Assembly: GCA_023136735.1 (NCBI GenBank)
Contig: JAGLQQ010000056.1
Coordinates: forward strand, 1-35,983
Direction of reading: 5' to 3'
DNA: 35,983 bases
Source: Candidatus Omnitrophota bacterium
GTDB taxonomy: Bacteria; Omnitrophota; Gorgyraeia; B26-G9
The notes beneath the pieces were generated by a model. The model saw only the letters and a list, made by a program, of their open reading frames with translations. It was not told the DNA's origin and did not search any database. Numbering within the stretch: position 1 is the first letter of the stretch; each line of letters starts with the position of its first letter. Below, in pieces: positions 3,874 to 35,940 of this stretch. Both the position numbers and the translations under genes were made by a program.

Positions 3874-4887
3874 ATGTATAGAGTTATATTTACAGTTTTG
3901 GCTGGTGCTTTCACAGTATGTTTCTGTTTATTGCCTGTTTTGGAGAAGCTGGCTCAAGAAAATGGGCTGCTAACACATCAATATCCTGATAAAATTGACA
4001 AAAGAAGGGTTCCCTATATCGGCGGGATTGGCATGTTTGCAGTCTTTATTCTAGTTTTCATGCTTTCTGTTCGGATTTTTCCTTTGACTATAAGTAAAGG
4101 GCAAGTCTCATTTTACTTATTTTGCTCAGGCCTTATTGTGTTTTTCGGATTTTACGATGACTTAAAGGAGCTTAAGCCGGCAGAAAAACTTATCGGACAA
4201 AGTATTGCAGCTTTTATTTTTGTAATATTTGCAATGCGCACCCAAATTATTTATTTTAATGATTCCTTTAATATTGTCTTAAGCGTATTCTGGATAGTTT
4301 TACTTGCAAATGCTTTTAACCTGCTTGATATCCTTGATGGTTTAGCAGGGGCGATATCAATAATTAATATTTTTACATTTTTTTTGTTTGCAATCCTTAC
4401 TAATAATCATTTTGTTTTAATCTGCTCTGCTTGTTTGCTTGGCGTTCTCTTTGCATTTTTACGCTATAACCTGCCGCCGGCACGTATTTTTATGGGGGAT
4501 GCGGGAAGTCAGTTTTTAGGATTTTCACAGGCAGTTATGGCAATTTCGCTCAGTTTAGCTCCAAGCGGCAAGGAGATAGGATTAATTATACCGCTGGTAA
4601 TTTTAGCTATACCTCTTTTTGACTTCCTTTTTGTTATATTAATGCGAATGAAACAAGGAAAGTCTATTTTTTTAAAAAGCAATGATCATTTTGTATTTAA
4701 AATGCTGGAATTTGGGATAGCACCGCAAACTATAATACGCCTGATGATAATTCTTTCTGTGATTACAAACGCCTGTGCATTTACAGTCTATCTTGTTTCA
4801 AATGCTATTGGATCGATTGTTTTTATATTGGTACTAACTGCTTTAATCGCATTTGGGTTTAAGTTAAGTCGAATGGAAATCAGTTGA
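3874..4887 (+). CDS. Polyprenyl-phosphate sugar-1-phosphate transferase, MraY/WecA/TagO family (Glycos_transf_4), initiating enzyme
   Basis: Multi-TM protein with the family motifs FFGFYDDLKEL, NAFNLLDILDGLAG (NxxNxxDGxDGLA) and FMGDAGSQFLGF. AAGGG lies 9 nt upstream of the ATG. Confidence 0.85.
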   Translation: MYRVIFTVLAGAFTVCFCLLPVLEKLAQENGLLTHQYPDKIDKRRVPYIGGIGMFAVFILVFMLSVRIFPLTISKGQVSFYLFCSGLIVFFGFYDDLKELKPAEKLIGQSIAAFIFVIFAMRTQIIYFNDSFNIVLSVFWIVLLANAFNLLDILDGLAGAISIINIFTFFLFAILTNNHFVLICSACLLGVLFAFLRYNLPPARIFMGDAGSQFLGFSQAVMAISLSLAPSGKEIGLIIPLVILAIPLFDFLFVILMRMKQGKSIFLKSNDHFVFKMLEFGIAPQTIIRLMIILSVITNACAFTVYLVSNAIGSIVFILVLTALIAFGFKLSRMEIS

Positions 4888-6179
4888 TGAACAAAAAAAT
4901 TGTGATATTAGGGGCAGGCCTTTCAGGATTAAGTATCGCTTACCACCTGCAAAATGGATGCTGTGTCTATGAGCAGGAAGGTGAAGTTGGGGGACTTGCT
5001 CGAACTGATGAAATTGACGGGTTTACTTTTGATTATGATGGTCACTTGCTGCATTTTAAAACTGATTATGTGAAAAAGCTTATCAAAAAGCTGCTTCCCG
5101 GATTATTTGTACCTCACAATCGCAATTCTTGGGTTTTTTCGCATAATGTATTCACTAAATATCCTTTTCAGGCAAATACTTATGGTTTGCCGTCTGGGGT
5201 AGTAAAGAAATGTATTTTAGGCATGTTTGATACAGTATCAAAAAAGAAGCCTCCTAAGGAAGTTAATCTGGCGCAATGGATGCAGCATCATTTCGGTGAA
5301 GGGATTACAAAGCATTTTATGTATCCTTATAATCACAAGTTTTGGACACTTGCACCTGAAGAGCTTATTTCTGACTGGACGCAAGGTTTTGTACCGCATG
5401 TTAAATTAAAGACAGTTCTCGATGGGGCGTTTAGCCTGAAAACAAAATCTCTGGGATATAATAGCGAGTTTTGGTATCCGAAAGTGGGCGGAATTGATCA
5501 GATAGCAAAAATTTTGGCTAAAAATATAAATAATATTAAAACTAACTATAAGATGACTGGTCTTGAGTTAGAAAATAAAAAGGTTTTTTTTGAAAATGGA
5601 GAAAGTGCAAAATTCACAGATTTGGTTTTAACTACTCCTCTTAAAGCACTGCAAAAACTTATAAGAGATACTCTTCCTAAAGAGGTAAAGCAGGCTTTTT
5701 TCAGCCTTAAATATGTTTCTATTTTTAATCTTAATCTGGGTGTTCAAAGAGAGAATATAAGTGATAAACATTGGATATATTTTCCCGAGGATAAGTTTTG
5801 TTTCTTCCGGGTAGGCTTTCCGACTAATTTTTCAAAAAATGTCGCGCCTAGGGGGACGAGCTCTCTGTATGTGGAAGTGTCGTATTCAGAGTTTAAGCAA
5901 GTAGATAAAAGAAAAATTGTCTCATTAATTGAAACTGATTTGGTCAAATCAGGCATATTAAATCCTGAGGATGATATTCTGATGAGACATATAAATGACA
6001 TAAAGTATGGCTATGTGATTTATGATAAGCAGTATAAACATAATATAAAGATAATTAATGATTATTTATTGAAGAATAATATTTATAGCGCCGGGAGATT
6101 TGGAAGATGGAAATATATGTCCATGGAGGATGTTATCCTTGATGGCAAACTAATAAGTGATTTGGTAAAGAAAAAATGA
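4887..6179 (+). CDS. FAD/NAD(P)-binding oxidoreductase, UDP-galactopyranose-mutase-like / amine-oxidase superfamily
   Basis: N-terminal Rossmann motif KIVILGAGLSGLSIAY..E.EGEVGG. The C-terminal GRFGRWKYMSMEDVILDG resembles the Glf-type C-terminus. I prefer ATG at 4887 (TGATG overlap) over TTG at 4884. Confidence 0.6.
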   Translation: MNKKIVILGAGLSGLSIAYHLQNGCCVYEQEGEVGGLARTDEIDGFTFDYDGHLLHFKTDYVKKLIKKLLPGLFVPHNRNSWVFSHNVFTKYPFQANTYGLPSGVVKKCILGMFDTVSKKKPPKEVNLAQWMQHHFGEGITKHFMYPYNHKFWTLAPEELISDWTQGFVPHVKLKTVLDGAFSLKTKSLGYNSEFWYPKVGGIDQIAKILAKNINNIKTNYKMTGLELENKKVFFENGESAKFTDLVLTTPLKALQKLIRDTLPKEVKQAFFSLKYVSIFNLNLGVQRENISDKHWIYFPEDKFCFFRVGFPTNFSKNVAPRGTSSLYVEVSYSEFKQVDKRKIVSLIETDLVKSGILNPEDDILMRHINDIKYGYVIYDKQYKHNIKIINDYLLKNNIYSAGRFGRWKYMSMEDVILDGKLISDLVKKK

Positions 6180-6955
6180 AAAATAATTATTTTGTACAAA
6201 TCTATCGTTATAAAGAACTGGTTAGTGCACTGGCTGATAAGGAAGTAAAGATAAAATACAAATCTGCTGTCTTGGGACATCTGTGGGCATTACTTAATCC
6301 ACTGCTTTTGATGCTGGTTTTTTCGTTTGTTTTCAGTGTCATCATGCGGGTTCAGATAAATAATTTTCCGGTTTTTTTGCTCTGTGCTTTATTACCCTGG
6401 TTTTATTTGAGCTTTTCGCTGAACGCTGCGACAACATCGATCGTTGATAACGCGAGTTTGATAAAAAAAGCCTATTTCCCTTATGAAGTTATACCGCTTT
6501 CTATTGTGATAGCTAATCTTTTTAACTTTTTGATATCACTGGTCTTGCTTTTTGCTTTTTTACTCTATTATTCAATTTATCCGAGCTGGTCATGGTTATA
6601 TTTACCAGTGATTGTTGTGCTTCAGAGTGTATTCATCCTAGGGCTTTGTTTATTGAGCTCTGCAATGCATGCGATGTACAGGGATGTGAAATATATAGTG
6701 GAACTGATATTGCTGGTTTGGTTCTACGCGACACCGATATTTTATCCGCTTTCGTTTGTACCTGATAATATTAGGCAATTTTTTCTTTTAAACCCGCTAA
6801 CTGTTTTCGTTAACCTTTATCGGCAGATTCTGCTGCAAGGGACAATGCCGGAACTAGGTTTATTGTTTCTGGCTTTTGTCTTAAGCCTGGCTTTTTATGG
6901 TGTAGGCATGGTAGTTTTTAACTCAAATAAGAAGAGCTTTGCGGATGTAACTTAA
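6176..6955 (+). CDS. wzm: ABC-2 type polysaccharide export permease (Wzm/TagG family)
   Basis: The N-terminus YRYKELVSALADKEVKIKYKSAVLGHLWALLNPLL is typical of Wzm/TagG. About 6 TM segments. ATGA overlap with the upstream gene, directly upstream of the matching ATPase. Confidence 0.85.
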   Translation: MKNNYFVQIYRYKELVSALADKEVKIKYKSAVLGHLWALLNPLLLMLVFSFVFSVIMRVQINNFPVFLLCALLPWFYLSFSLNAATTSIVDNASLIKKAYFPYEVIPLSIVIANLFNFLISLVLLFAFLLYYSIYPSWSWLYLPVIVVLQSVFILGLCLLSSAMHAMYRDVKYIVELILLVWFYATPIFYPLSFVPDNIRQFFLLNPLTVFVNLYRQILLQGTMPELGLLFLAFVLSLAFYGVGMVVFNSNKKSFADVT

Positions 6956-6957
6956 AA

Positions 6958-7086: not shown

Positions 7087-10000
7087 ATGTCTGAAATAGT
7101 AGTAAGTTTGAAAAATATAAATAAACAATATTGGTTGAGCTTTGCTAAGCAATCTTTGATAGGCAATTTCCTTTCAATGTTTAGATTTGGTAAAGGCATG
7201 GCGGCTAAAAGACATGTCTGTGCTTTAGAGGGTATAGCACTAAATATAAAAAGAGGAGAGGCCGTTGGAATTATCGGGGAGAATGCCTCTGGTAAGACAA
7301 CGATACTGCGCATAATTAGCAGGATAACTGTACCGACTACGGGGGAATTGGAAGTAAACGGCAAGGTAGCGGGCCTTCTTGATTTAGGGGCTGGCTTTCA
7401 TTCTGAATTGACAGGAAGAGAGAATATTTATCTGGATGCAGCTTTGTATGGCATGAGCCGAAAAGAAATAGATGGGGCTTATGAAAAAATAGTTGAATTT
7501 TCCGGATTAGGGGATTTTATAAACGCGCAGGTTAAGACATATTCTCAAGGTATGCTTGTTCGACTAGGCTTTGCTATAGCCATACACGTTGATCCTGATA
7601 TATTCCTTATTGATGACAGCTTAGCTGTCGGAGATGAAGAATTTCAGCGTAAATGTCTTAAGAAGGTTTTTGAATTAAAAGAACAAGGGAAAACTATTAT
7701 TGTTGTATCCCATGACCTCGATTCCATAAGCAGGATTTGCGAAAGAGGGATTTTGCTTAAATCAGGCAGGATTGTTAAAGATGATTCTATTCATAAAGTA
7801 ATTATGCGTTATATAGAGGCAGTGGGAGATAAAAATTCTATTGCTTCAATTGACAAAGGAAGAATCAGTGTTATTTTTAACAGCGGTAAAATCATTCTTT
7901 TATGGGACGGCAAGCCAATAACAAAGAATTTTGGAGGATATGCTAGCTTACAGTTTCTTGATAAATGGATAATGTCTTGGCAGGGGAAATGGCAGGTTGT
8001 GGAAAATACAGATTATTCCTTGAAAGTTCAAGGACTATTCGATAAATATGGAGTAAAATTGGAACTGGCTTGTTTTCTTCAGGGCGAAAGGCTGATGAAT
8101 TTTAATCTTAAGCTGGAGGTTCCCACACAAACGAGTCTGAAAAAAGCTGGTTTTGGGTTTATGGTAAGTGAAGAATATAACCGCTATTTAAATGGACAAA
8201 ACATTGAACCCATACAAGCTATTGATAAGTCGGCAAAAGAATGGACGGATATTTACCGCACTGACGAATATAATGCGCCGATTATGCTTATCAGCCGGGA
8301 TAGTATGCCTGTATTGAATATAAGGTTTGCTAGCCATGAATGGGCTGGATTCAGTCTAATTCAAAATACGGCAGAAGAATTGAATGCGCGTATTATGCAG
8401 ACTCAAATAAGCCCGCCTCAAGCATTTGCTTTATCAGGTGAAGAGAGTTCTATTGTAGAAAGCAGCTGTAGGCTTGAGCTTATGAGTGAAGAGGATTTTA
8501 AGGGCCTTATACACAAAAGAATAGAAGAAAGCACGATAGCATCCGGCAGGCTTAAAGTGCAATTAAAAGACAACGGTATCCAAATTTTCTTTGATGAAAC
8601 TGAGCTGACAAAGAGTAATGGATTGAGTCTTGGTTTTTATCATAAAAGCAGGTTTTTTGATCTGTTTGCAGGTCTTTGGAGTTTGACTAAAAATGCTTCA
8701 GAAACACTTAGTATATGCTCCAGTTTTCAGGAAATGGGGTTAAAGGCTGAATGTTTGTTGCAATTGGCTGAGGATAGCCTAAGGTGGAATATAGATATTA
8801 AAAGTGAGAAATCAATTGAAGATCACAGGCTTATCACAGGTCTTTATTTAAGCGAAAAATACAGAAAATATTTTACCGGAGTTCACGACTATGAGTTTCC
8901 TGCTTCAGGAGAGCATGTTGAAAAGATTGATTTATTAGCAGGAGAAACGGACTTTATAGGTTTAATGGCAGGAAACGATGAATTGCCTTCACTGGTCTTC
9001 GAATCTCTGCAGCCAGGCATGTTAGAGCTGCAAAACTCAGGGATTGATTCCCCGGGACGCATTTTAATGCAGGAGGTAGTTGACAGGAGTACAAACGGAC
9101 GGATCGTATTCCTTGAGACCCCGGAGCAAAAGAGTGGATTTTTAATCGATAAAAAGAAAAAACATGCTAAGAGTACGGGTTTAAGCAATGATCAGCTTAG
9201 GCTTGAGTTTAATGAAAATAATATTAATATTTACAGTGGAGAAAGTAAAATAACTGGAGGAGAGGGTTTTAGCAGCGGGGTTTACTTTAATGGTCGGTGG
9301 TATGAATCAACTCAGCTTAAAAAACAGATACGCAAAGAAGGAGATACTCTTAAGGTCTTGATTGAAAGACGCTTGCCGCGTTTAAGTGAATTGTGGGAGA
9401 TATCATTGAAAGCTAAGAAAATTCAGTGGATAACGAAAATTCAATCTGAGGAAAAATTGAGCGATGTGCATTATAAGGCCGGCATTGTTTTAAATTCAGA
9501 GTATGGACAATGGGCTCATTCTTTTAGTGAAGGGCAGTTTGATGAACAAACAAGAAATAGCCGGGTTGTTGATTTAGATGACGTGAACAATGCCTTGCTT
9601 GGTGCCAGATCTGAGGATTGTTCCCTGCCTGCAGTATTCTTTAAGAGAATTAACAGTATTACTTCAGGGGTTATTATTCAGAAAGAAGAAGATAAGTGCT
9701 GTTTGCACTTCAAATTAAAAAATGCGGCAGTGATAAACGGTAAGGGCAGGGAAAAACTGTTTTCTGGGACGATAAGTTTGCAGGATGAAAGATGCTGGAG
9801 GAATGATCTGTCAAATCACCGCAAAGAGGAGTTTTCTCTGCAGACAAGTGATGGGCTTCAATTGTTTGCTGCGAATAAGCAGATAAAACTGCAAGCTCAA
9901 GGCATAGAGCTTACACAGGCAAAGGGATTGGCAGTCGCGCTGCTGTGTGAAGATGAAGATATAGATACTAATTTTGCATTATGGACATTGAAGAAGAACA

Positions 10001-11148
10001 GCCCAAGTAAACTAGAGGTCCAAATGGATTGGGCTAACTCAGTCTTGAGACAAAGGTGGCAATTTGAGCTTATTGATGATGCGATACAATGGACAGTATC
10101 GTTTGATGTTAAGAAGCCTATTTTGTATAAAGAATTATTAGTAAATGTGTTTCCTCAAAAGCAATTTAACAGATGGCAAACTATAGCTGATGCTGGTCAA
10201 ATCGATTGTGAAGGATCAGCTGGCAAAGCAGTAACTATTTTCGATAATAGAAGTGAAATTCTTAAGGTGTTTCAGGAGGGGATTTCTCGGGAAAGCCCAG
10301 GTTTGGCGCTTAACCTGCTTGTGGATATGAAGAAATGGTTTTTACATATCTATAATCACGAACGAGGTGATGGAATCGCTTGCGGGGCGCACTACCTGTC
10401 GGATCCTCAAGGAGAGTGCCTTGATCAGGGCACAATTGAAATTTTTAAGGCAAAGATATCATTAGTGAGTGATAGTGGCAGCGAGCAAATTGCAGCCCCT
10501 GGCAATCATGTGGATGCTTATGATCTAGAACTCGTTAAATTGAAGGTCAAAATTGAAAAAGCAAAAATGAGATTATTCTGGGCTGATAAGGAATTGACTA
10601 AAAAACTTGGAATGTTTACCTCTTTTTCCATTAATGGAAACCTGATAGATTCAACCCTGGCTAAATGGGATGTGCAGGCGGCCGTCGATAATAAAATAAA
10701 AGTCCGATTGAACTGGAGCAGTTATTTTGTCTCTCAATTATGGGAGATCAAGCTGATAAGTGAACATGAACTTTGCTGGGATGTTCGTACTGAAATTAAT
10801 CAGGCGGGTATAGATAGACATACAGCAGCTTTAATGCTCTCAGATAATTATGAGAGCTATAAGTCAGATGATAATCAGGGAGGCTGTTTTCCTGATAGGT
10901 TTAAGCTGGATGTTTGGATGAATATGTCAAAGACTAAAGATAGCATAGAAGTTAATTCAAAGCAAAGCAGCTTTCCGGCTTTAATTTTTGATGCCGCTTT
11001 TGAAAAACATGAATTTAGTAATATGTTAGAGAATTCTGATGCTCTTCATTCATCTAGAGTTTTAAGATGCGAAATGCAGAGCCCTGAGCTGGCGGGTAAG
11101 GCAGGATTAGCTTCTAGCATAAAAATAAATATATCAATACAGGAGTAG
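7087..11148 (+). CDS. wzt: Polysaccharide ABC exporter ATP-binding protein (Wzt/TagH family) with a ~1100-aa C-terminal extension of five tandem repeat modules
   Basis: NBD within aa 1-250: Walker A GENASGKTT, signature YSQGMLVRL, Walker B IFLIDDSLAVGD, H-loop VVSHD. Residues ~255-1353 are non-NBD and internally repetitive. Confidence 0.9.
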   Translation: MSEIVVSLKNINKQYWLSFAKQSLIGNFLSMFRFGKGMAAKRHVCALEGIALNIKRGEAVGIIGENASGKTTILRIISRITVPTTGELEVNGKVAGLLDLGAGFHSELTGRENIYLDAALYGMSRKEIDGAYEKIVEFSGLGDFINAQVKTYSQGMLVRLGFAIAIHVDPDIFLIDDSLAVGDEEFQRKCLKKVFELKEQGKTIIVVSHDLDSISRICERGILLKSGRIVKDDSIHKVIMRYIEAVGDKNSIASIDKGRISVIFNSGKIILLWDGKPITKNFGGYASLQFLDKWIMSWQGKWQVVENTDYSLKVQGLFDKYGVKLELACFLQGERLMNFNLKLEVPTQTSLKKAGFGFMVSEEYNRYLNGQNIEPIQAIDKSAKEWTDIYRTDEYNAPIMLISRDSMPVLNIRFASHEWAGFSLIQNTAEELNARIMQTQISPPQAFALSGEESSIVESSCRLELMSEEDFKGLIHKRIEESTIASGRLKVQLKDNGIQIFFDETELTKSNGLSLGFYHKSRFFDLFAGLWSLTKNASETLSICSSFQEMGLKAECLLQLAEDSLRWNIDIKSEKSIEDHRLITGLYLSEKYRKYFTGVHDYEFPASGEHVEKIDLLAGETDFIGLMAGNDELPSLVFESLQPGMLELQNSGIDSPGRILMQEVVDRSTNGRIVFLETPEQKSGFLIDKKKKHAKSTGLSNDQLRLEFNENNINIYSGESKITGGEGFSSGVYFNGRWYESTQLKKQIRKEGDTLKVLIERRLPRLSELWEISLKAKKIQWITKIQSEEKLSDVHYKAGIVLNSEYGQWAHSFSEGQFDEQTRNSRVVDLDDVNNALLGARSEDCSLPAVFFKRINSITSGVIIQKEEDKCCLHFKLKNAAVINGKGREKLFSGTISLQDERCWRNDLSNHRKEEFSLQTSDGLQLFAANKQIKLQAQGIELTQAKGLAVALLCEDEDIDTNFALWTLKKNSPSKLEVQMDWANSVLRQRWQFELIDDAIQWTVSFDVKKPILYKELLVNVFPQKQFNRWQTIADAGQIDCEGSAGKAVTIFDNRSEILKVFQEGISRESPGLALNLLVDMKKWFLHIYNHERGDGIACGAHYLSDPQGECLDQGTIEIFKAKISLVSDSGSEQIAAPGNHVDAYDLELVKLKVKIEKAKMRLFWADKELTKKLGMFTSFSINGNLIDSTLAKWDVQAAVDNKIKVRLNWSSYFVSQLWEIKLISEHELCWDVRTEINQAGIDRHTAALMLSDNYESYKSDDNQGGCFPDRFKLDVWMNMSKTKDSIEVNSKQSSFPALIFDAAFEKHEFSNMLENSDALHSSRVLRCEMQSPELAGKAGLASSIKINISIQE
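7849..11145 (+). other. Five tandem protein-level copies of an unrecognised ~215-230-aa module (approximate starts at aa 255, 485, 701, 921, 1146 of Wzt)
   Basis: Recurrent anchors: GRISVIFNSGKIILLWDGKPITK; GRLKVQLKDNGIQIFFDETELTKSNGL; LRLEFNENNINIYSGESKITGGEGF..GRWYEST; LQLFAANKQIKLQAQGIELTQAKGL; KLKVKIEKAKMRLFWADKELTKKLGM. Distal anchors: YKAGIVLNSEYGQW, LELQNSGIDSPGRILMQ, SLIQNTAEELNARIMQ, MLENSDALHSSRVLR. Boundaries are approximate. Confidence 0.7.
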
Positions 11149-11151
11149 GCT

Positions 11152-27959: not shown

Positions 27960-27965
27960 AAAAAC

Positions 27966-28035: not shown

Positions 28036-28098
28036 AGGACGATGGACGACCGCTGCGCTAGGATGAGGGACGCAAATCAAGTAAAAATTGGTTCTTTC

Positions 28099-28356: not shown

Positions 28357-28419
28357 CTTGTCACCTTATCACTTATATAATTTTTATCAACTTATTTACG
28401 AAAGAACCTAAAAAGTAAG

Positions 28420-28557
28420 AAGGTAAAAGTAAAAAGTAGGAATACGTTGTCGAAAAAATAAATTAACCGCAGAAGAACGCAGTTACAAGTAAAAAGTACC
28501 CCTTCGCCTCTGCTCAGGGTCCGGTGTGAAAACTAGGGAAAAGGTAAAAGTAAAAAG
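28420..28557. repeat. 17-nt direct repeat (AAGGTAAAAGTAAAAAG) x2 plus one partial copy, upstream of the GT4 gene
   Basis: Exact copies at 28420-28436 and 28541-28557. A partial copy, AAGTAAAAAGTA, is at 28487-28498. The second full copy runs into the RBS region of the 28566 start. Confidence 0.7.
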
Positions 28558-28565
28558 GAAGGTGC

Positions 28566-29723
28566 ATGAAAATATTAATGGTACACCCACATGATTTGTT
28601 TTCGAGGCAAGAGCCCTGGACTACGCGAATAAAAAATATTGCGGCTGAATTCAGGTTAAAAAATCATAGTGTTAAAGTTGTATATTTCCCTCTTGTTTAC
28701 CGTAAAGGCAATAAAAGATTTTACAAGGGCGGTATAGAATTTATACCTTTATCAAGACAGGTAGGCGAGGGGAATTTTTTAAAAAATATTCGATTTTTCA
28801 TCAAAGAAAGTAAATGGGCGGATATAATTCATTTTCAAAAATGCTTTCACTATGCTGCAATGCCAGCACTGATAGGAGGGTTTCTAAATAAAAAACCAAT
28901 GCATTATGACTGGGATGATTGGGAAATAAAAATATTCCATTATTGCGCTAAACAGCCAAGGCTTGTCGGAATATTTCTTCAGGTATTGGAAAGGTTTATG
29001 CCCTTACTCTGCGATACTGTGTCTGTGTCGAGTTTTAGATTAAAACAGGAATGTCAGCGTTATGGAGTAAAGGAAAACCGTATTTTTATGGCACCTGTGG
29101 GAGCTGATCTTGCGCTATTTCATCCTCAGATTTCCTCTGTTAGAATAAGAGAACGCTATAATATAGAAACACCGATTATAAGCTATATCGGACAGCTGCA
29201 TGGCGGACAGTACGCGGAGCAATTTATAAAGGCGGCAAAAATAGTGCTCAACAGTGTAAATGACCTTACGTTTATGATCGTCGGGGGAGGATATCGCCTT
29301 AATGAGCTGAGGACTTTGGCGAGTGCTTTGGAAATAGAGGAAAATATTATCTTTACAGATTCTGTTTCGCATAAAGAGGTTCCTTTATTTATGGCTGCTG
29401 CGGATATTGCGATTGCCTGTTTTGAAGACAATGATATTACCCGTTGTAAAAGCCCGCTTAAAATAGCCGAATATATGGCTTGCGGAAAGCCTATTGTAGC
29501 CAGCAATGTTGGAGAGGTGAAAAATATGCTTGGCGGAGTGGGTGTTATGACAGAGCCTGATAATCCAGAGGACTTAGCACGGGGAATAATTAAACTGCTT
29601 GAAGATGAGCCTCTGAGAAAACGTTTATCTCAAAAGGCACGTGATAGGGCTGAAGTAATATACAATTGGAGAAATACATCGGATAATTTATTAAGAGCAT
29701 ATAGTGTTGCTTTAGAACAATAA
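28566..29723 (+). CDS. GT-B fold glycosyltransferase, family 4-like (Glycos_transf_1)
   Basis: N-terminus MKILMVHPHD.. and a C-terminal EX7E-type region (PLKIAEYMACGKPIVASNVGEV). The length is typical of GT4. Confidence 0.8.
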   Translation: MKILMVHPHDLFSRQEPWTTRIKNIAAEFRLKNHSVKVVYFPLVYRKGNKRFYKGGIEFIPLSRQVGEGNFLKNIRFFIKESKWADIIHFQKCFHYAAMPALIGGFLNKKPMHYDWDDWEIKIFHYCAKQPRLVGIFLQVLERFMPLLCDTVSVSSFRLKQECQRYGVKENRIFMAPVGADLALFHPQISSVRIRERYNIETPIISYIGQLHGGQYAEQFIKAAKIVLNSVNDLTFMIVGGGYRLNELRTLASALEIEENIIFTDSVSHKEVPLFMAAADIAIACFEDNDITRCKSPLKIAEYMACGKPIVASNVGEVKNMLGGVGVMTEPDNPEDLARGIIKLLEDEPLRKRLSQKARDRAEVIYNWRNTSDNLLRAYSVALEQ

Positions 29724-29792
29724 AAAAACAATAGAAAGTATTAAGGTTCACCTGATTTTATAGTTTTAAATAGCATGAGGGGTATAAATAAT

Positions 29793-30725
29793 ATGAGATT
29801 ATCAATAGTAATACCAGTTTTCAATGAACAAGGCAGCTTGAATGCCTTACATAAAAAGCTTAGTTCTGTTTTAGAGAAGATGGATATGTCCTATGAAGTT
29901 ATTTTTATTGATGACGCTAGCACTGATCAGAGTTCCGCTATTTTAAATGAAATTAAAAAGCAAGATGGCAAAGTCAAAATAATTACATTGATTAGAAATT
30001 ATGGTCAAACTCAGGCGATTTCCGCTGGAGTTGATGAGGCCCTTGGTGAAATAATTGTTACTATGGATGCCGATCTCCAAAATGATCCTGCTGATATTCC
30101 CAGGATTCTGGCTAAGTTAGATGAGGGTTATGACGTTGTAAGCGGCTGGCGTAAAAAGAGAAAAGATGGTTTATGGCTGAGAAAAATTCCTTCGAATATG
30201 GCAAATTTAATAAGTGTCTGGATTACAGGAGTAAAGATTCATGATTTGGGATGCGCGTTAAAGGCCTACAGATACCGGGTTTTGAAGAATATTGAGTTTC
30301 ACGGTGAAATTCATAGATTGCTTCCTTTGTATGCCGCTATTCAGGGGGCTAAAATAACAGAAATATCGGTTAAACATCAGAAAAGAAAATATGGTAAGTC
30401 TAAATATGGGATTTCACGTTTGTTTAAGGTTATTCTTGATTTGTTTGCGGTAATGTTTATGTGGAAATTTCTTCCCAAGCCTATTTATGCTTTTGGAGGG
30501 ATAGGATTGGCTTCAGTAAGTTTTTCCGGGGCTATTGGATTGTTTATAATTTTTAGAAAAATATTTTTAGCAGGTGTTTGGGTAAGTCCACTTCTGTTTA
30601 TTTTTGTTATTTTCTTCTTGATAGGAATTCAGTTTATGCTTATGGGAATTATTGCTGAATTTATCTTGAGGCTTTATTGCGGAGTGAAGGATATTAAGAG
30701 ATATAAAGTAAAACATAAGGAGTAG
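29793..30725 (+). CDS. GT2 polyprenyl-phosphate glycosyltransferase (GtrB / ArnC / DPM1-like)
   Basis: Motifs: MRLSIVIPVFNE, FIDDASTDQS, TMDADLQNDP. Two C-terminal TM helices. GAGGGG lies 10 nt upstream of ATG 29793. The alternative upstream ATG at 29775 has no SD. Confidence 0.8.
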   Translation: MRLSIVIPVFNEQGSLNALHKKLSSVLEKMDMSYEVIFIDDASTDQSSAILNEIKKQDGKVKIITLIRNYGQTQAISAGVDEALGEIIVTMDADLQNDPADIPRILAKLDEGYDVVSGWRKKRKDGLWLRKIPSNMANLISVWITGVKIHDLGCALKAYRYRVLKNIEFHGEIHRLLPLYAAIQGAKITEISVKHQKRKYGKSKYGISRLFKVILDLFAVMFMWKFLPKPIYAFGGIGLASVSFSGAIGLFIIFRKIFLAGVWVSPLLFIFVIFFLIGIQFMLMGIIAEFILRLYCGVKDIKRYKVKHKE

Positions 30726-30735
30726 AATTTTTTAA

Positions 30736-32439
30736 GTGAAAATATTGGGAATTTGTGATAGTCAGGATGCAGGAGCGGTACTATTAGCTACTGAGAGTAA
30801 CGAGTTAACTGCTGTAAATGAGGAGAGGATCTCGCGAGTTAAATTAGCGGGAGGATTTCCTCTGGGCTCTATTAAAGAAGTACTGAGATTGAAAAATACC
30901 AAACCCGAAGAAGTGGGGTTGGTTGCGGTTGCTTCACATATGACGCCATCATTTATTTTTAGAGGTTTGAGTCTTTTACATCGAAAATTAAAGCAAGAGA
31001 ACAAGCAGTTTAGTTTATTGCTGTCTTTATATATTCTTTATCAAGTTATTGCTAAATGCAGTATATTATTGGAGTTTATTGATTCAAGGTTATCCTCCTT
31101 AATTATACAGAGAAAGTTAAAGAAAATTGGCATAAAGGCTGACTTATGTATGGTCGAACACCATCATGCGCACGCGTTTGCTGCTTATGTTACTTCCGGC
31201 ATGGAAAAGTCACTAGTATTTACGATTGATGGATTAGGGGACGGAGTATCTTTCAGCGTGAATATTGGCGAAAATGGCAGCCTTAGGCGTATATATGAGG
31301 GGAAAGCTCTGAATGACATAACGCTTTACTACTCAAGACTAACGGAGTTTCTTGGATTTACTCCGATAAGGGATGAAGGAAAGGTCATGGGGCTTGCTGC
31401 CTATTCCGATGATCAGAGTGTATTAAATGAAGCCCAAAAATTACTGCGCAGTCACAACGGAAGATTCAAAAGAAGAAATATTTTTTATTCTTTTTCAAAA
31501 GACAAAAAAATTTTTCAAAAACTTAGATTAAAGCCTCGAGAAGATATTGCAGCTTCTTTTCAGACCCATGCTGAGAATACGATCTGTGATATTGTACGCT
31601 ATTGGGTGAATAGAACAGGGATTAGGGAGGTAGCACTTGGCGGGGGCTTTTTTGCAAACATTAAAGTCAACCAGCGAATTGCCCAGATGAATGAGGTCTC
31701 CAGTGTCTATGTTTATCCGCATATGGGAGATGGGGGATTGGCTTTGGGAGCTGTTTATGCTTTGTCTAAAACACAACCTTTCAAATTCAAGGATCTCTTC
31801 CTGGGAACTGCTTATTCCGATGAGCAGATTCAAAAAATTTTAAATAAATATGGTTTGCAATATAAAAGGATCAATAATATTGAACAGAAGATTGCTTTTT
31901 TATTGAGTGAGGGCAAAATAGTGGCGCGTTTTAACGGCGCTATGGAATATGGGCCGCGTGCTTTGGGGAACCGTTCTATCCTTGCTCAGGCAACGGATCC
32001 TGGGATTCAGGAGCAACTAAACAAAAAGTTAGGTAGAGATACTTTTATGCCTTTTGCTCCTGCAATGTTGATTGAAAATAAAAATGATTGCTGCGTAGGA
32101 GCGGCTAAGGCGTCTTATTCAGCGGTATTTATGAATATAAGTTTTCCCTGTACAGACTATTTTAAAAAATTATGTCCTGCCGCAGTTCACAGGGATGGAA
32201 CTACTCGGCCGCAGTTTGTTTCTATGGAAAGTAACTTAGGTTTTTATAAGATTTTAAGTGAATACAATGAGCTTACTGGGATTCCGGCATTAATTAACAC
32301 AAGCTTTAATATTCATGAAGAGCCAATAGTGAGAACGCCAGAGGATGCAGTACATGCTTTTAAAACGGGCAATCTGGATTATTTGGCAATCAATAATTTT
32401 CTATTAAAAGGAGGCTCTAATGAAAAAGGAAAAGCGTAA
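30736..32439 (+). CDS. Carbamoyltransferase, NodU/CmcH family
   Basis: Motifs: MKILGICDSQDAGAVLL, VEHHHAHAFAAY, TIDGLGDG, GGGFFANIKVN, YGPRALGNRSIL, NTSFNIHEEPIV. GTG start with AAGGAG 13 nt upstream, so the start is slightly uncertain. Confidence 0.85.
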   Translation: MKILGICDSQDAGAVLLATESNELTAVNEERISRVKLAGGFPLGSIKEVLRLKNTKPEEVGLVAVASHMTPSFIFRGLSLLHRKLKQENKQFSLLLSLYILYQVIAKCSILLEFIDSRLSSLIIQRKLKKIGIKADLCMVEHHHAHAFAAYVTSGMEKSLVFTIDGLGDGVSFSVNIGENGSLRRIYEGKALNDITLYYSRLTEFLGFTPIRDEGKVMGLAAYSDDQSVLNEAQKLLRSHNGRFKRRNIFYSFSKDKKIFQKLRLKPREDIAASFQTHAENTICDIVRYWVNRTGIREVALGGGFFANIKVNQRIAQMNEVSSVYVYPHMGDGGLALGAVYALSKTQPFKFKDLFLGTAYSDEQIQKILNKYGLQYKRINNIEQKIAFLLSEGKIVARFNGAMEYGPRALGNRSILAQATDPGIQEQLNKKLGRDTFMPFAPAMLIENKNDCCVGAAKASYSAVFMNISFPCTDYFKKLCPAAVHRDGTTRPQFVSMESNLGFYKILSEYNELTGIPALINTSFNIHEEPIVRTPEDAVHAFKTGNLDYLAINNFLLKGGSNEKGKA

Positions 32440-33190
32440 AAATTTTTTAGATTGGTTTTTTGAGGAAGATAAATCAGATGGATTAGAAGGGAAAGAAGAT
32501 GAAGTAATTGAAATAAATTTTTTTCAAGCGCTAACGATAATTATTATTACAATGTGTTTTTTGCTTTTAATATCTTATTCGCACTTAAAGACTTACTTTA
32601 AAAAGCCGACATTTAATGTTAGCCAATATATAGATTCTAAAATCGAGAAAAATTTCTTTCTCAATGGAAAAAACCTGGAAAATAGTGATTTCAGCCAAGG
32701 ATTAAAGCATTGGGTGAGCTCTGACGGAGGAGATCTTTTTCCTGGGTCAAAAAGTATCGTTGAACTTGATGCAAAGGAATATTACTCAGCTCCTTACAGT
32801 ATTCAGATTAAGTCAATAAAACCGGCAAACCGTTATCATTACTCTAAAAATAAACACAAATATATAATAAACAATGCTTATGGATATAAGGAGACAGATC
32901 ACTGGCTTGGAGTAATAGCTGGTACAGATATTACGGCCAGCCTTTGGTATAGAGGGGATGTAGTTCTTTTTTCTATCATTGGTTTATTGGAGTATGGGCA
33001 ATGGAAGGGATTAGGAAAGACCACTGGTTTGGCATCAGATGATTGGACTCCATTAAGTTTGAGAATACATGTTCCTTCTGATGTTCGGGCAATTGCATTG
33101 GAGATCACCTTGAATCAGGCCCAGGGCATGCCTTTGCCTATTGTGTGGATAGATGATGTAAAAGTTAAAGTTAAAAACAATGAAAACTAA
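32420..33190 (+). CDS. Membrane-anchored protein with a CBM4_9-like (jelly-roll carbohydrate-binding-like) domain
   Basis: GGAGG lies 5 nt upstream, and the gene has a 20-nt overlap with the upstream gene. One TM segment (ALTIIIITMCFLLLISY). The domain starts ..NLENSDFSQGLKHWVSS.. and ends ..PIVWIDDVKVKV, as in CBM_4_9-type modules. The domain call is tentative. Confidence 0.5.
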   Translation: MKKEKRKNFLDWFFEEDKSDGLEGKEDEVIEINFFQALTIIIITMCFLLLISYSHLKTYFKKPTFNVSQYIDSKIEKNFFLNGKNLENSDFSQGLKHWVSSDGGDLFPGSKSIVELDAKEYYSAPYSIQIKSIKPANRYHYSKNKHKYIINNAYGYKETDHWLGVIAGTDITASLWYRGDVVLFSIIGLLEYGQWKGLGKTTGLASDDWTPLSLRIHVPSDVRAIALEITLNQAQGMPLPIVWIDDVKVKVKNNEN

Positions 33191-34886
33191 AAATACCAAT
33201 AGAACTCACATAATATTGCTGATTTTACTGCTTTCTCTGCACTTTCTGAGCAATGTTGTTTTTTTAAAGGGTAATCCCTTTCCTGAAGGAAAGGATAGTT
33301 ATGCGCATGCAAGCAGTTTTCTTAATTTTGCGCAAATTGCAAGCTCAGGATTAGAACATCCCTTTTATGTGCAAGAGAAAGGCCTTCTATTTAGTCTTGT
33401 GTTCACATCTTTTGATTATCCGCCTTTATTTTACTTTGTATCTTTTCTGCTGAATTTAATTTCACCGTTAATATTTATGAACGGTGCTGTTTTATCCTCA
33501 AGCCTGTTTTTTATGCTTCTTCTCTTAGGTATTTATAAGATTGGTGCCAAAATGAGCAAGGATACAGGTATTTTAGCTGCATTTATCTGCAGTTTTTATC
33601 CTATTATCCATCAAACCTCGAGACATTTTAATTTGGAGCTAGCTACAAGTGCAATGGTTGCTTTAAGTATTTGGCTGCTTGTTGAAACGGAATATTTTGA
33701 GAATAATAGATATTCTATTTTACTTGGCATTATGTTGGGACTGGGGATGCTAACAAAACAAACATTTATTGTTTATATATCAGTTGTGTTTATTTTTTAT
33801 GTTTGGATCTCATTTAAAGTGAAGGCAAAGAATAAAGTAAATCATAAATTAAAGCGTAATAATTTATTAAGAATAATAGGGATAGCAGTAATTATAAGCA
33901 GCATATTTTATTTTAACAAACTGGTTTTTGCCAGTGTAGCTCATAGAGCTTTTTTCCCAGGAGCTGTAATGGGGGGGGGGATATTATCTTTAAAACATCT
34001 ATTGTATTATCCTTTTTCCCTAAAGAATACTATTGGTTTATTTTTCATCCTAGTTTTTCTTATGGGTATTCTGCCGAATAAAAAGATGGATTCATTCTAT
34101 AGACGTTTATTGTTCCTTTGGTTGATCGCGCCTGTTGTGCTGCTTAGCTTTTTTTCTTTAAAATATGCTGAGTATACAATTGCTGTAATTCCGGCAATGG
34201 CGCTGATATCCTCAGCAGGAATATTAGCTTTGCCTAAGCGGGCAAGGAGAATATGTATAGGGAGTGTTTGCCTGGTGAGTCTGATCTTATATGCGCAAAC
34301 TATTTCCGGAAATGCTGGATCTTTTTATGCTCGCTATGATAATGAGAAAAATTACCATGTTTCCATCCTGCAAGTTACCGATGGTAATATCAATCAGTTT
34401 AACTCCGTTCCTGAATTACTAAAGTCAATGCAGGGGGAAAACGTAAAGATTGGCGTTTGCTATGACAGTATTGGCTTATTTTTTCCGACTTTTTTGGTTA
34501 AGAGGATTTTTGCTGTAACTAAAATGCAGTCTGCTGTAGTGGATTTGATGTTTAGGACTACAGTTTTTTTTAATAATCTGGACGATTTTGATTTTTTTAT
34601 ATATGTTTCGCTTAGTCAGAAGCATTGGCCGAGCAAACAATCTTTTGTTGAGTTTATAGAAGAGAATAACGAAAAATGTAATGTAAAAGTTGAATTTACT
34701 GATCAATTTTCTAATGACTATGTGTTTGCCGATAGAAAAAAGATTGTCATTGCCCAATATTTAGTAGATAAACTTATATCTATTAAACGAGAGTATGATC
34801 CTTATTGCTATATTAAATTCGATGATTCTGAGAATTTTTTATCAGAACATGTTTATATTTATAAATTCAGGAATGATGATGATTAA
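33180..34886 (+). CDS. GT-C fold polyprenyl-phosphate-sugar-dependent glycosyltransferase (ArnT / PMT_2-like) with a C-terminal soluble domain
   Basis: About 10-12 TM segments. The first-loop acidic motif is ..PEGKDSYAHA. Also YPPLFYF and ..GLGMLTKQTF.., as in the ArnT/PMT_2 families. It lies close downstream of a GtrB-like GT2 gene. Confidence 0.65.
   Translation: MKTKNTNRTHIILLILLLSLHFLSNVVFLKGNPFPEGKDSYAHASSFLNFAQIASSGLEHPFYVQEKGLLFSLVFTSFDYPPLFYFVSFLLNLISPLIFMNGAVLSSSLFFMLLLLGIYKIGAKMSKDTGILAAFICSFYPIIHQTSRHFNLELATSAMVALSIWLLVETEYFENNRYSILLGIMLGLGMLTKQTFIVYISVVFIFYVWISFKVKAKNKVNHKLKRNNLLRIIGIAVIISSIFYFNKLVFASVAHRAFFPGAVMGGGILSLKHLLYYPFSLKNTIGLFFILVFLMGILPNKKMDSFYRRLLFLWLIAPVVLLSFFSLKYAEYTIAVIPAMALISSAGILALPKRARRICIGSVCLVSLILYAQTISGNAGSFYARYDNEKNYHVSILQVTDGNINQFNSVPELLKSMQGENVKIGVCYDSIGLFFPTFLVKRIFAVTKMQSAVVDLMFRTTVFFNNLDDFDFFIYVSLSQKHWPSKQSFVEFIEENNEKCNVKVEFTDQFSNDYVFADRKKIVIAQYLVDKLISIKREYDPYCYIKFDDSENFLSEHVYIYKFRNDDD
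33971..33980 (+). repeat. G10 homopolymer inside the GT-C coding sequence
   Basis: aatGGGGGGGGGGata encodes M-G-G-G-I. The next-longest G/C runs I saw in the window are G6. This is a striking outlier in AT-rich DNA. Confidence 0.9.
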
Positions 34887-35940
34887 AGATATTTATTCTC
34901 AAATAAACAATTTGCATGTATTTAGTAAACTGTTTTCGTTAAAGCAAATTGTGAGTCGGATTTTTGATTATCCGTTGACGATTAATATTTTAATTACATC
35001 AGATTGTAACTTGAAGTGTAAGATTTGCTCAGCTAAAAAAATGATGGAAGAAAAAAAGCAGCTTAAAACATCTGAAATTACTAATTTTATAAATACGATT
35101 GCGAGATATAACCCTACTATTTTTATCGGTGGTGGGGAGCCTTTTATGCGGGAGGATATCTTAGAAATTTTTAAAACAATAAAGAACAATAAATTGCGTT
35201 TTGGTGCAGTTACTAATGGACTTTTACTTGATCGGAGTAAAGTTGATGCACTTTTAAGCGCTCAGCCGCAGGTAATGATTTTTTCTTTGCATGGCTCAGG
35301 TAAACTTCATGATGATGTTGTTGGGCACAAAGGAGCGTTTGAACTTTTGAATCGAAATATTAAATATTTAAATGCAAAAAGAAAAAATATGCGGCTGATA
35401 TTAAATTGCGTTATAAGCGAAGAGAACTATGAATATCTTGAGGAAATGGTGGCCTTTGGGAAAGAAATCGGTGTGGATTTTGTAAGATTCGAACATCTGA
35501 TTTTTCTTAATCATAAAGAGTATGAAAAACATATAGAAGTTAGTACAAAAACATTCCCACAGGATAAGTGTGAGTTGGCGACTTATATAAAAGATATTAA
35601 CAATGTCAAAATAGGGCAGACACTTGAGAAAGCCATCCCGTATTTACGTCAAAAGTACAGAAACTTTGTTTTTTTTAAACCTTATCTGAATTTACAAGAA
35701 CTTTCTTCTTGGTATAAAAGGGGTTTCTTTCCAAAGCGAAGATGCCTGTTTGTGCAGCATTCGTTGTATATTAAACCAAACGGAGACATAGTGCCGTGCC
35801 AGTTCTTTAACAATTTTGTTCTTGGTAATATTTTAAAAGATGATTTTATACAAGTTTGGAGATCGATGGAGCGGAAATCATTCAGCCAGCTGCTTAATAA
35901 ACGCCTTTTACCGGGGTGTATTCGGTGTTGTAAATTGTAG
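34873..35940 (+). CDS. Radical SAM enzyme with a SPASM/twitch-like C-terminus
   Basis: I prefer the ATGATGATG start (34873), which overlaps the upstream stop region in the same way as the 26316 start. Motifs: ITSDCNLKCKIC (CX3CX2C), IGGGEPFM, VTNG, C-X12-G-X4-C (CLFVQHSLYIKPNGDIVPC), and terminal PGCIRCC. The ORF-track start at 34795 would overlap the GT-C gene by 92 nt. Confidence 0.8.
   Translation: MMMIKDIYSQINNLHVFSKLFSLKQIVSRIFDYPLTINILITSDCNLKCKICSAKKMMEEKKQLKTSEITNFINTIARYNPTIFIGGGEPFMREDILEIFKTIKNNKLRFGAVTNGLLLDRSKVDALLSAQPQVMIFSLHGSGKLHDDVVGHKGAFELLNRNIKYLNAKRKNMRLILNCVISEENYEYLEEMVAFGKEIGVDFVRFEHLIFLNHKEYEKHIEVSTKTFPQDKCELATYIKDINNVKIGQTLEKAIPYLRQKYRNFVFFKPYLNLQELSSWYKRGFFPKRRCLFVQHSLYIKPNGDIVPCQFFNNFVLGNILKDDFIQVWRSMERKSFSQLLNKRLLPGCIRCCKL

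Follow-up and report, generated by a model that had tools for sequence, protein, structure and literature searches.

The closest described counterpart of the locus considered here is the ABC-transporter-dependent O-antigen pathway, as found in Escherichia coli O9a or represented by the Wzm-Wzt transporter of Aquifex aeolicus (6amx/7k2t). The locus occupies positions 3874 to 35940 of a stretch of 35,983 nucleotides (nt) from a Candidatus Omnitrophota bacterium (assembly GCA_023136735.1, contig JAGLQQ010000056.1), referred to below as the window. It shares with the O-antigen pathway a WecA-type initiator, Wzm, Wzt and a cytoplasmic C-terminal extension of the ATPase. However, the extension here is made of 2-8 tandem modules of ~215 amino acids (aa), galactose-mutarotase-like in fold and absent from Pfam, instead of Wzt_C. 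The same module is present on tailoring enzymes, and the window holds no WbdD-type terminator or WaaL. The locus also encodes an array of radical S-adenosylmethionine (rSAM) enzymes that has no counterpart in the O-antigen pathway. We consider it very probable that the locus serves glycan export and that the rSAM enzymes are coupled to it in function.

Mycobacterial arabinogalactan synthesis follows the same logic, with WecA, a UDP-galactopyranose mutase (UGM, or Glf), Wzm/Wzt, a family 2 glycosyltransferase (GT2) of the polyprenyl-phosphate-sugar synthase type and a GT-C enzyme. The window proteins are nevertheless not orthologues of the mycobacterial ones (NCBIfam scores are far below cut-off), and no GlfT-type polymerase is identified among them. 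Conversely, the mycobacterial system has neither the module nor an rSAM array, and the host here is a member of the Omnitrophota.

Radical enzymes acting on sugar rings are also known (HpnJ for the hopanoid cyclitol ether, AprD4 for the 3'-deoxygenation of apramycin, and BtrN, DesII, BlsE and GenK). The N-terminal domain of a giant window protein, big2, is nearest to HpnJ and AprD4, and the model of the small rSAM paralogue r2 overlays BlsE with a TM score of ~0.7 (see below). However, the described proteins are single enzymes of small-molecule or lipid pathways, not fused to a transporter or to a glycan-binding repeat, and the window proteins reach the cut-off of none of these families. In polytheonamide-type clusters, several rSAM epimerases and B12-dependent C-methyltransferases of an uncultured bacterium rewrite one linear ribosomal peptide, equipped with a leader, before its export. 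The likeness is conceptual only and lies in the use of many radical enzymes, B12-type ones included, on one polymer; the window has neither precursor nor peptide recognition element, and its context is that of a lipid-linked glycan exporter.

An earlier reading of the window by a model that saw only the letters and their open reading frames (hereafter the original prediction) knew of no described glycan locus with such a density of rSAM enzymes. Full-text literature searches agree, as rSAM in conjunction with Wzt, Omnitrophota, SPASM or O-antigen returned no description of such a system. A 2026 preprint on 176 complete Omnitrophota genomes, which reports polysaccharide cassettes that vary between strains, treats rSAM only as a Pfam count (10.64898/2026.06.07.730766). 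The backbone of the locus, an ABC-transporter-dependent glycan pathway, is of a kind already known. What is new is the module family, its use in place of Wzt_C and its presence on tailoring enzymes, together with rSAM arrays of up to 17 domains and fusions between the transporter ATPase and rSAM enzymes.

The window contains 22 open reading frames (ORFs) of at least 200 aa, all on the plus strand, and its G+C content is even (33-40%). The source is a metagenome-assembled genome, represented also by GCA_030627865.1 and by replicate ZHAN22-2 metagenome assemblies. Positions 3874-35940 form a single same-strand gene string, running from WecA through the UGM-like enzyme, Wzm, Wzt, the small rSAM paralogues and big1, a pair of SGNH proteins, big2 and the B12-type rSAM, the GTs and the carbamoyltransferase to GT-C and r6. 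The window ends 43 nt past the last rSAM gene (r6, which ends at 35940). The features are as follows.

3874-4887, plus strand: WecA/MraY-family polyprenyl-phosphate sugar-1-phosphate transferase, the initiator (PF00953, TIGR02380)
4884-6179, plus strand: FAD enzyme, UDP-galactopyranose mutase-like (PF01593/PF13450; PDB homologues)
6176-6955, plus strand: Wzm, ABC-2 permease (PF01061, 56.7 bits)
7087-7857, plus strand: nucleotide-binding domain of Wzt, residues 1-257 of 1353 aa (PF00005, 59.4 bits)
7858-11148, plus strand: C-terminus of Wzt, five tandem modules (7858-8544, 8545-9189, 9190-9849, 9850-10533 and 10534-11145)
11152-12141, plus strand: rSAM paralogue r1, 329 aa (PF04055, 69.7 bits; CX3CX2C and auxiliary-cluster motif)
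12142-13158, plus strand: rSAM/SPASM paralogue r2, 338 aa (Pfam, motifs, AlphaFold2 model)
13163-14200, plus strand: rSAM/SPASM paralogue r3, 345 aa (Pfam, motifs)
14218-15228, plus strand: rSAM/SPASM paralogue r4, 336 aa (Pfam, motifs)
15225-16250, plus strand: rSAM paralogue r5, 341 aa (no Pfam SPASM match; CX13GX4C and CX3CX5C present)
16272-19811, plus strand: giant fusion big1, 1179 aa, with three modules (aa 17-680, nt 16320-18311), a linker and an rSAM/SPASM part (aa ~810-1179, nt 18699-19808)
19811-20806, plus strand: SGNH/GDSL hydrolase-type protein 1, with N-terminal hydrophobic segment (PF13472, 52.2 bits)
21044-22033, plus strand: SGNH/GDSL hydrolase-type protein 2, with N-terminal hydrophobic segment (PF13472, 62.5 bits), 38% identical to protein 1
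22142-26326, plus strand: giant fusion big2, 1394 aa, with an HpnJ/AprD4-like B12-type rSAM part (aa 1-470, nt 22142-23551), a module (aa 514-745, nt 23681-24376), an rSAM/SPASM part (aa 766-1130, nt 24437-25531) and a second module (aa 1183-1394, nt 25688-26323)
26316-27959, plus strand: B12-binding-type rSAM, 547 aa, with hydrophobic C-terminal tail (Pfam, NCBIfam)
28566-29723, plus strand: GT4-family (GT-B) glycosyltransferase (PF00534, Glycos_transf_1, 99.7 bits)
29775-30725, plus strand: ArnC/GtrB-like GT2 with C-terminal membrane segments (PF00535, 115.9 bits; NF007986)
30736-32439, plus strand: NodU/CmcH-type carbamoyltransferase (PF16861, 183 bits, and PF02543, 121 bits)
32420-33190, plus strand: protein of 256 aa with N-terminal hydrophobic segment (no Pfam or NCBIfam match)
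33180-34886, plus strand: GT-C-fold membrane glycosyltransferase, PMT_2/ArnT-like (PF13231, 47.8 bits)
34873-35940, plus strand: rSAM/SPASM protein r6, 355 aa (PF04055, 65.9 bits; SPASM, 43.5 bits)

Every gene listed in the original prediction is found where it had been placed, on the plus strand and with Pfam scores above gathering; the UGM-like FAD gene (4884-6179) is an addition to that list. The ten rSAM domains in nine ORFs are borne out both by PF04055, which scores 59-139 bits in all nine (gathering score 29.5), and by a regular-expression scan that finds ten CX3CX2C motifs. The same scan finds exactly eight C-X11-13-G-X4-C motifs, the number predicted, located in r1-r5, big1, the second rSAM domain of big2 and r6. 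The predicted ATG start of r6 at 34873 matches a recorded product (on a 1.8-kb contig) and overlaps GT-C by 14 nt, while the mechanical ORF start at 34795 (overlap 92 nt) matches none.

The link between transporter and radical enzymes resides in the module. All-against-all BLAST relates ~1100 otherwise unannotated residues of Wzt to the first ~680 of big1 and to two stretches of big2. When delimited and aligned, these regions resolve into ten copies of an all-beta module of ~215 aa, of which Wzt has five, big1 three and big2 two. The copies are 15-31% identical to one another and have no Pfam match. In particular, PF14524 (Wzt_C) does not match the 1353-aa Wzt, whose extension is five copies of another fold. 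An AlphaFold2 model built on the ten-sequence alignment is all-beta (pLDDT 89.8, pTM 0.86), and by Foldseek comparison with the PDB it falls into the galactose-mutarotase-like supersandwich class. It is most similar to non-catalytic N-terminal domains of enzymes of the glycoside hydrolase GH36/GH129 type (9ayu/9awt, E 3e-7, TM 0.62-0.66), followed by aldose 1-epimerases, OpgG/OpgD, domains of GH2 and GH38 enzymes and the P1 domain of YidC. The predicted module is thereby assigned to a carbohydrate-handling fold class, not to the jelly-roll of the classical Wzt C-terminal domain, and from this class we infer that it binds glycan.

A word-indexed homology search with the module alignment retrieved one protein only, a Wzt fragment. 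An exhaustive search of 1.84 billion representative proteins with a hidden Markov model profile retrieved 638 module-bearing proteins, the majority of them Wzt ATPases; 531 of the 638 have E <= 1e-10, and 261 have E <= 1e-30. Architectures were classed with local profiles for the best 150 of the 638. Of these, 86 start with a Wzt-type ATPase followed by 2-6 modules, and in about 16 the modules are joined to an rSAM/SPASM or B12-rSAM domain. Two of the 150, P0091 and P0200, combine ABC ATPase, modules and rSAM/SPASM in a single chain, Pfam confirming ABC_tran, Radical_SAM and SPASM. The gene encoding P0091 is preceded by those for WecA, a UGM-like enzyme and Wzm. The modules-then-rSAM architecture of big1 recurs in many loci.

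A different fusion turns up among the 376 homologues of the window B12-rSAM (26316-27959). One of them, P0308 (788 aa, 38% identical to the window enzyme), joins a B12-binding rSAM to a classical Wzt_C domain (PF14524, 57.7 bits; gathering score 30.4). In P0308, a radical enzyme has thus acquired a Wzt-type recognition domain by a second route, independent of the module. Since module fusions and this independent Wzt_C fusion both exist, radical enzymes have been joined repeatedly in evolution to the cytoplasmic substrate-recognition region of the transporter. The hydrophobic C-terminal tail of the window B12-rSAM (...LVLKRVRGSIIFPGS) occurs as a separate ORF of ~40 aa in two other loci (L020, 12528-12665; L024, 12698-12817), ending in ...IFPGN or IFPGG. 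This suggests that the tail may be a small membrane-anchoring element, fused or free.

Co-conservation was examined with a locus search that started from the rSAM family, not from the transporter, using an alignment of r1-r5 and 21 homologues against GTDB species-representative genomes. The figures rest on the best 80 of 333 coding stretches found, which fall into 67 loci from 51 assemblies. By record title, 32 of the loci are from Omnitrophota, and the rest are mostly labelled 'uncultured Planctomycetia/bacterium', with a few other labels. The median number of rSAM domains per locus is 7 and the maximum 17, with at least 8 in 26 loci; a module-rSAM fusion is present in 30 of the 67. A Wzt ATPase and/or the module is found in 22 of the 23 loci for which the full 21 kb is available, while 14 rSAM domains take up the whole length of the remaining one. 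Nearly all annotated genes (613 of 617) lie on the strand of the seed. The reciprocal view is similar. Three Wzt proteins found via the module alone adjoin rSAM genes or are fused to one; two of the three are directly followed by rSAM arrays, with ordinary GT2/GT4 genes adjacent or interleaved, next to wzm. Since the domain calls have E values of at most 1e-15 and dozens of other genomes show it too, the arrangement is not due to chance. The claim that the rSAM genes are wired to a Wzm/Wzt pathway is thus upheld by co-conservation of the arrays with wzm/wzt, by the ATPase-module-rSAM fusions and by the B12-rSAM-Wzt_C fusion.

The same rSAM arrays are carried by contigs titled archaeon, Methanosarcinales, Woesearchaeota, Nanoarchaeota or Patescibacteria (L064-L069, L058, L066; L053, L056, L063, L074). 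Some of them encode Wzm and a module-less Wzt. These contigs could be mis-binned Omnitrophota or could reflect real spread across lineages.

Relatives at 58-70% identity share the gene order of the window between an upstream pseudopilin gene and big2, both included. Also conserved is the block that follows downstream (GT4, GT2, carbamoyltransferase, 256-aa protein, GT-C and r6). A minimal version of the island is seen in L081 (GCA_024231215.1, a 708-kb contig). It comprises a UGM-like gene, Wzm, Wzt with five modules, big2 and the B12-rSAM, followed downstream by GT4, GT2, carbamoyltransferase, a no-family protein, GT-C, r6, a methyltransferase and a further pair of GT-C genes. It lacks the SGNH genes, big1 and all of the small rSAM paralogues. 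L081 thereby sets a core apart from an accessory set that can be expanded. Genomes have between 0 and more than 14 small paralogues, which fits a diversifiable tailoring set. It was considered whether this number equals that of the Wzt modules, as in the window (five and five). The idea was rejected, other loci having five modules and four paralogues, or two to three modules and 9-11 paralogues.

The paralogues r1-r5 are old, being mutually 31-41% identical by BLAST. In eight syntenic genomes each has a one-to-one positional orthologue at 49-76% identity, compared with 33-45% to the next-best paralogue; r1 is missing in some relatives. Because the orthologues are closer than the next paralogue, each of the five is expected to have a distinct conserved role. 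More distant loci show independent expansions of the small paralogues. Each Wzt module likewise has a positional orthologue in the relatives, with module number and order kept. Yet the module region is the fastest-evolving part of the locus when the window is compared with L007 and L013. It retains 36% and 27% identity respectively, whereas the figures are 73% and 67% for the Wzt ATPase, 70% and 62% for r2, and 80% and 72% for the rSAM domain of big1; r1, r3 and r5 are intermediate (48-55%). Such divergence would be expected of a ligand-recognition element that tracks a changing ligand. Relaxed constraint is the alternative.

The export core consists of family members rather than of known equivalogs. 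WecA scores 120.8 bits on PF00953 (gathering score 27) and 95 bits on TIGR02380 (cut-off 326). The best solved homologues of the FAD enzyme, over its full length, are eukaryote-type UGMs of T. cruzi and A. fumigatus (4dsg, E 1e-43, residues 2-412; 3ute, E 4e-40), and on the bacterial Glf model TIGR00031 it has 30.9 bits (cut-off 303.75). It thus resembles UDP-galactopyranose mutase and would provide a furanose nucleotide sugar. Galactan-export models are among the best NCBIfam matches of both Wzm and Wzt; for Wzm the best is the Wzm/RfbD model, at 54 bits and below cut-off. The nearest solved relatives of the Wzt ATPase are A. aeolicus Wzt (6amx/7k2t, E 5e-65) and then TagH/TarH (TagH 7dd0, E 2e-57). 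GT2 scores 227 bits on the ArnC model NF007986, below its cut-off of 529. It is ArnC/GtrB-like, of the polyprenyl-phosphate sugar synthase type and not an obvious chain elongator, with GT-C as its presumed periplasmic partner. The original prediction counted this GT2 towards a 'complete-looking' glycan core. The family assignment stands, but the core was overstated, with a single cytoplasmic elongating GT (GT4) in the window. In the relatives L080 and L081, the position of GT4 after the B12-rSAM and the carbamoyltransferase are conserved. So is GT-C, which has extra copies downstream and is followed by r6 in both. The 256-aa protein has positional counterparts of 284 aa (L080) and 241 aa (L081) between carbamoyltransferase and GT-C.

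The scarcity of conventional elongating GTs raises the question of whether the rSAM enzymes themselves build part of the backbone, starting from a lipid-linked sugar primer and proceeding by repeated radical C-C or C-O coupling in an exporter-tethered assembly line. The exported product would then differ from a usual polysaccharide held together by glycosidic bonds. The arrays are very large and variable (up to 17 domains), some enzymes are physically fused to the transporter ATPase, and ring contraction and C-C bond formation are reactions of HpnJ-like and GDGT-MAS-like relatives. We nonetheless judge this proposal very unlikely: it is without precedent, other loci hold several ordinary GT2/GT4 genes next to wzm, and the minimal relative L081 lacks small paralogues while keeping exporter and five modules. 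A version in which such an assembly line (at most 17 enzymes, some of them ATPase-fused) builds or cross-links the lipid-linked polymer backbone via C-C or C-O bonds, the module serving as a processivity or hand-off element, is quite unlikely.

It appears that the rSAM enzymes themselves belong to no characterised family. None of them reaches a curated NCBIfam cut-off, the small paralogues scoring 40-105 bits on many SPASM families whose cut-offs are 170-650. Hence no close characterised homologue with a function unrelated to glycans was encountered; such a homologue would have told against the original prediction. Pfam SPASM (PF13186, gathering score 21.5) is exceeded in r2, r3, r4, big1, big2 and r6; r1 comes to 20.9 bits and r5 has no match. 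Conserved throughout the small-paralogue family are the rSAM cluster, a GGE motif and, in the C-terminal part, five Cys residues (CX11-13GX4C and CX3CX5C). A full SPASM domain has seven Cys and two clusters. The five residues would suffice for one auxiliary cluster, a second being uncertain, and the region has a weak match to the twitch domain of BtrN.

The AlphaFold2 model of r2 (pLDDT 90.8) has anSME, SkfB and BlsE as fold neighbours. The best structural match in both directions is BlsE, a sugar-nucleoside decarboxylase of 327 aa without a peptide recognition element (TM 0.69/0.71), and DesII, viperin and MoaA are also close. These likenesses speak for tailoring at the level of precursors, in which the module-less small rSAMs would act on nucleotide sugars or on the first lipid-linked monosaccharide, and only the module-bearing giants would touch polymer. 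The products would be unusual building blocks (deoxy, branched, amino or decarboxylated), by analogy with DesII, BlsE, viperin and AprD4. The absence of modules from all five small paralogues and the presence of a UGM-like nucleotide-sugar enzyme in the same operon are in line with it. However, the 14 or more paralogues of some loci far exceed the need of any known sugar-precursor pathway. Moreover, Pfam and NCBIfam detect none of the nucleotidyltransferase, dehydratase and aminotransferase genes of the usual nucleoside-diphosphate-sugar pathways in the window, and the ATPase-module-rSAM fusions place some SPASM enzymes at the transporter. As a general account precursor-level tailoring is unlikely; for the module-less paralogues it is a serious variant.

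SPASM enzymes classically modify peptides and proteins, and the small paralogues have anSME, SkfB, SuiB and CteB among their nearest neighbours in fold and sequence. The substrate might therefore be a peptide or protein, as in the maturation of peptides that are made by the ribosome and modified post-translationally (RiPPs), with the ABC-2 transporter exporting it or giving immunity and the glycan genes as mere neighbours. RiPP clusters do contain ABC-2 transporters. A conserved basic, Trp-rich ORF of 47 aa (MAETNWQKF..K.GGLFYAL.RGFKY.AWRN.C...GIDWR.FS) also lies inside the rSAM arrays of about 12 more distant, larger loci (e.g. L009, 9858-10001; L021, 9748-9891). This ORF could encode a small accessory or anchor protein, or a peptide substrate. 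It is, however, absent from the window and its closest relatives, and in the window the gaps within the small-rSAM array measure 0-22 nt. Clustering of the small intergenic ORFs of the loci and the window, duplicates left out, revealed no conserved small ORF that could be a precursor peptide in the window, larger gaps included. Nor is there an RRE (RiPP recognition element) or PqqD domain in linkers or N-termini, the cluster motif of the small paralogues starting at residue 15-30 and leaving no room beyond those residues. In addition, the ATPase resembles Wzt/TagH specifically, the WecA, UGM and GT genes are conserved together with the rSAM genes and interspersed among them, and P0308 carries a glycan-binding Wzt_C domain. 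A peptide or protein substrate is highly improbable on these grounds, and a RiPP system for the window was rejected after the small-ORF clustering and the RRE search.

Two ORFs were predicted to have B12-type N-termini. These are real in the sense that NCBIfam class B rSAM models match both strongly, though all below curated cut-offs; the Pfam evidence is borderline, with 31.4 bits for big2 and 32.6 for the ORF at 26316 on PF02310 (gathering score 32.1). The N-terminal domain of big2 and the 26316 ORF are both candidate class B (cobalamin-binding) rSAM enzymes. The big2 domain scores 266.7 bits on the HpnJ model TIGR03471 (cut-off 577.6), so that big2 does not qualify as HpnJ, and Pfam and NCBIfam detect no hopanoid genes in the window. 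Its best solved match is AprD4 (6fd2, E 6e-28), a member of the B12-type rSAM fold class. HpnJ and AprD4 both act on amino-sugar rings.

HpnJ belongs to hopanoid side-chain biosynthesis, and GDGT-MAS is the second-best PDB sequence match of the paralogue profile (E 6e-18). This might be taken to mean that the substrate is a lipid. The rSAMs would then remodel a polyprenyl carrier or membrane lipid (by methylation, cyclisation or tail-to-tail coupling), in the manner of Tes/GDGT-MAS, Hbs or the hopanoid enzymes, and a type-V ABC transporter would flip it. Omnitrophota have been reported to carry rSAM lipid genes, with homologues of Hbs and Mss (10.1101/2023.10.20.563219). Yet the Tes model yields only 28-64 bits against a cut-off of 450, HpnJ acts on the sugar head group and not on the lipid, and the module is a carbohydrate-handling fold. 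The Wzt_C fusion and the context of UGM, GT, carbamoyltransferase and GT-C point to sugar. A lipid substrate is therefore extremely improbable, and a lipid synthase (Tes, Hbs or Mss) as primary reading was rejected in view of the very low Tes scores and the carbohydrate context.

On balance we favour, as somewhat more likely than not, a model in which enzymes tethered to the exporter carry out radical tailoring of a lipid-linked surface glycan at the cytoplasmic face. A polyprenyl-diphosphate-linked cell-surface glycan would be made and exported by the ABC-transporter-dependent route. WecA would prime the lipid carrier, the UGM-like enzyme would supply a furanose nucleotide sugar and GT4 would elongate the chain. 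Before export, the lipid-linked glycan would undergo radical tailoring by the five SPASM/twitch paralogues of ~330 aa, the two giants, the B12-type enzyme and r6, with the small paralogues and the B12-type enzymes introducing site-specific modifications, among which may be those named in the original prediction (C-methylation, oxidation, epimerisation or cross-linking). The modules may bind the nascent polyprenyl-linked glycan, judging by their fold, and so co-localise big1, big2 and the transporter on one polymer; alternatively they may dock with one another. The carbamoyltransferase would add carbamoyl groups. Wzm/Wzt would then export the product, and outside the cytoplasm the ArnC-like GT2 with GT-C, as well as the SGNH proteins, might decorate the polymer further. 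The gene content, the module and its fold class, the fusions and the co-conservation across the phylum are observations. That a glycan is the substrate of the rSAM enzymes, and what each of them may do to it, is what we infer.

Two ideas of the original prediction have fared differently. Wzt ATPases and their C-terminal fusions are cytoplasmic, and rSAM chemistry needs reduced Fe-S clusters; therefore any rSAM modification precedes export. That prediction follows from topology, given that the modules lie C-terminal to the cytoplasmic ATPase and that rSAM enzymes need the reduced cytoplasm. The second idea, that one of the modifications may create a cap read by the Wzt modules, finds no support in that form. 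The modules are not Wzt_C but galactose-mutarotase-like in fold, and they occur on tailoring enzymes too, which argues for chain recognition or enzyme-transporter docking rather than terminal-cap reading.

Several observations weigh against the favoured model. L081 keeps the transporter, big2, the B12-rSAM and r6 in the absence of small paralogues, and the small-paralogue array is therefore not essential to the pathway. In both sequence and structure, the small paralogues are equally close to enzymes acting on peptides (anSME, SkfB, SuiB, CteB), on lipids (GDGT-MAS) and on sugars or nucleotides (BlsE, DesII, viperin, MoaA), so that such comparison yields no call of substrate or reaction. The fold matches of the module are at TM ~0.6 with 7-12% identity, and the non-sugar P1 domain of YidC has the same fold. 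GT4 as the only obvious cytoplasmic elongating GT in the window is little for a polymer. Finally, the 22 ORFs include no Wzy_C/WaaL ligase, no member of the OPX or PCP families and no WbdD-type terminator, as the original prediction had noted.

Two further genes precede the locus.

12-2198, plus strand: C-terminal 728 aa of a conserved protein of 935-1006 aa, ending in ...YEGKF (no Pfam match)
2198-2890, plus strand: pseudopilin-like protein with N-terminal methylation motif (PF07963, 26.9 bits; an exact recorded product has the same start)

The 12-2198 gene is conserved upstream of the island in L007, L008, L012, L013, L015 and L016. The pseudopilin-like gene is syntenic in relatives and is a conserved upstream neighbour, probably outside the pathway. 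In several relatives the large no-family protein and the pseudopilin gene are directly upstream of wecA. The counterpart region of the 12-2198 gene in L078 (7194-10001) has GH2_C/GH5-like proteins and an MFS transporter farther upstream. On the other side, L080 and L081 continue downstream of r6, past the point corresponding to the window end, with a 180-aa class I methyltransferase and further GT-C genes.

The window has no Rfam or tRNA matches. In the 2800-4000 gap there is no intrinsic terminator, and promoter-like sites are not enriched over shuffled sequences. A near-consensus sigma-70-like promoter match (TTGACA, 17 nt, TATATT, with upstream TG) lies at 3612-3640, 234 nt before wecA, in this gap without enrichment of such sites. 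A 22-nt inverted repeat (28090-28111 and 28387-28408, 95% complementary) is located in the non-coding 607 nt that precede GT4 (27959-28566). The other large gap, upstream of wecA, contains a third copy in minus orientation (3443-3464). A search of relatives that allowed up to 4 mismatches did not find the motif. By coordinate arithmetic from record ranges, at least two further assemblies of this organism have contigs that end near window positions 28030-28170. The 607-nt gap may be a repeat or a strain-variable junction, or its 22-nt motif may be a shared operator.

Omnitrophota are a candidate phylum of ultra-small bacteria thought to be host- or prey-dependent, and the locus is a concrete genetic handle on their cell envelope. 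rSAM enzymes are known to act on peptides, cofactors, lipids and small-molecule sugars, whereas large batteries of them dedicated to an exported surface glycan were not found in the literature searched. The link between exporter and enzymes goes beyond adjacency, as it includes a common domain family, ATPase-module-rSAM fusions, a Wzt_C-rSAM fusion and conservation across a candidate phylum. If the favoured model is true, these bacteria would bear surface polymers with modifications that ordinary glycan analysis would not expect (C-methyl, deoxy, epimerised or cross-linked residues). Uncharacterised rSAM enzymes, in dozens of orthologous groups, would gain a defined substrate context, and the locus would provide a new model of how a Wzt-type transporter is coupled to tailoring.

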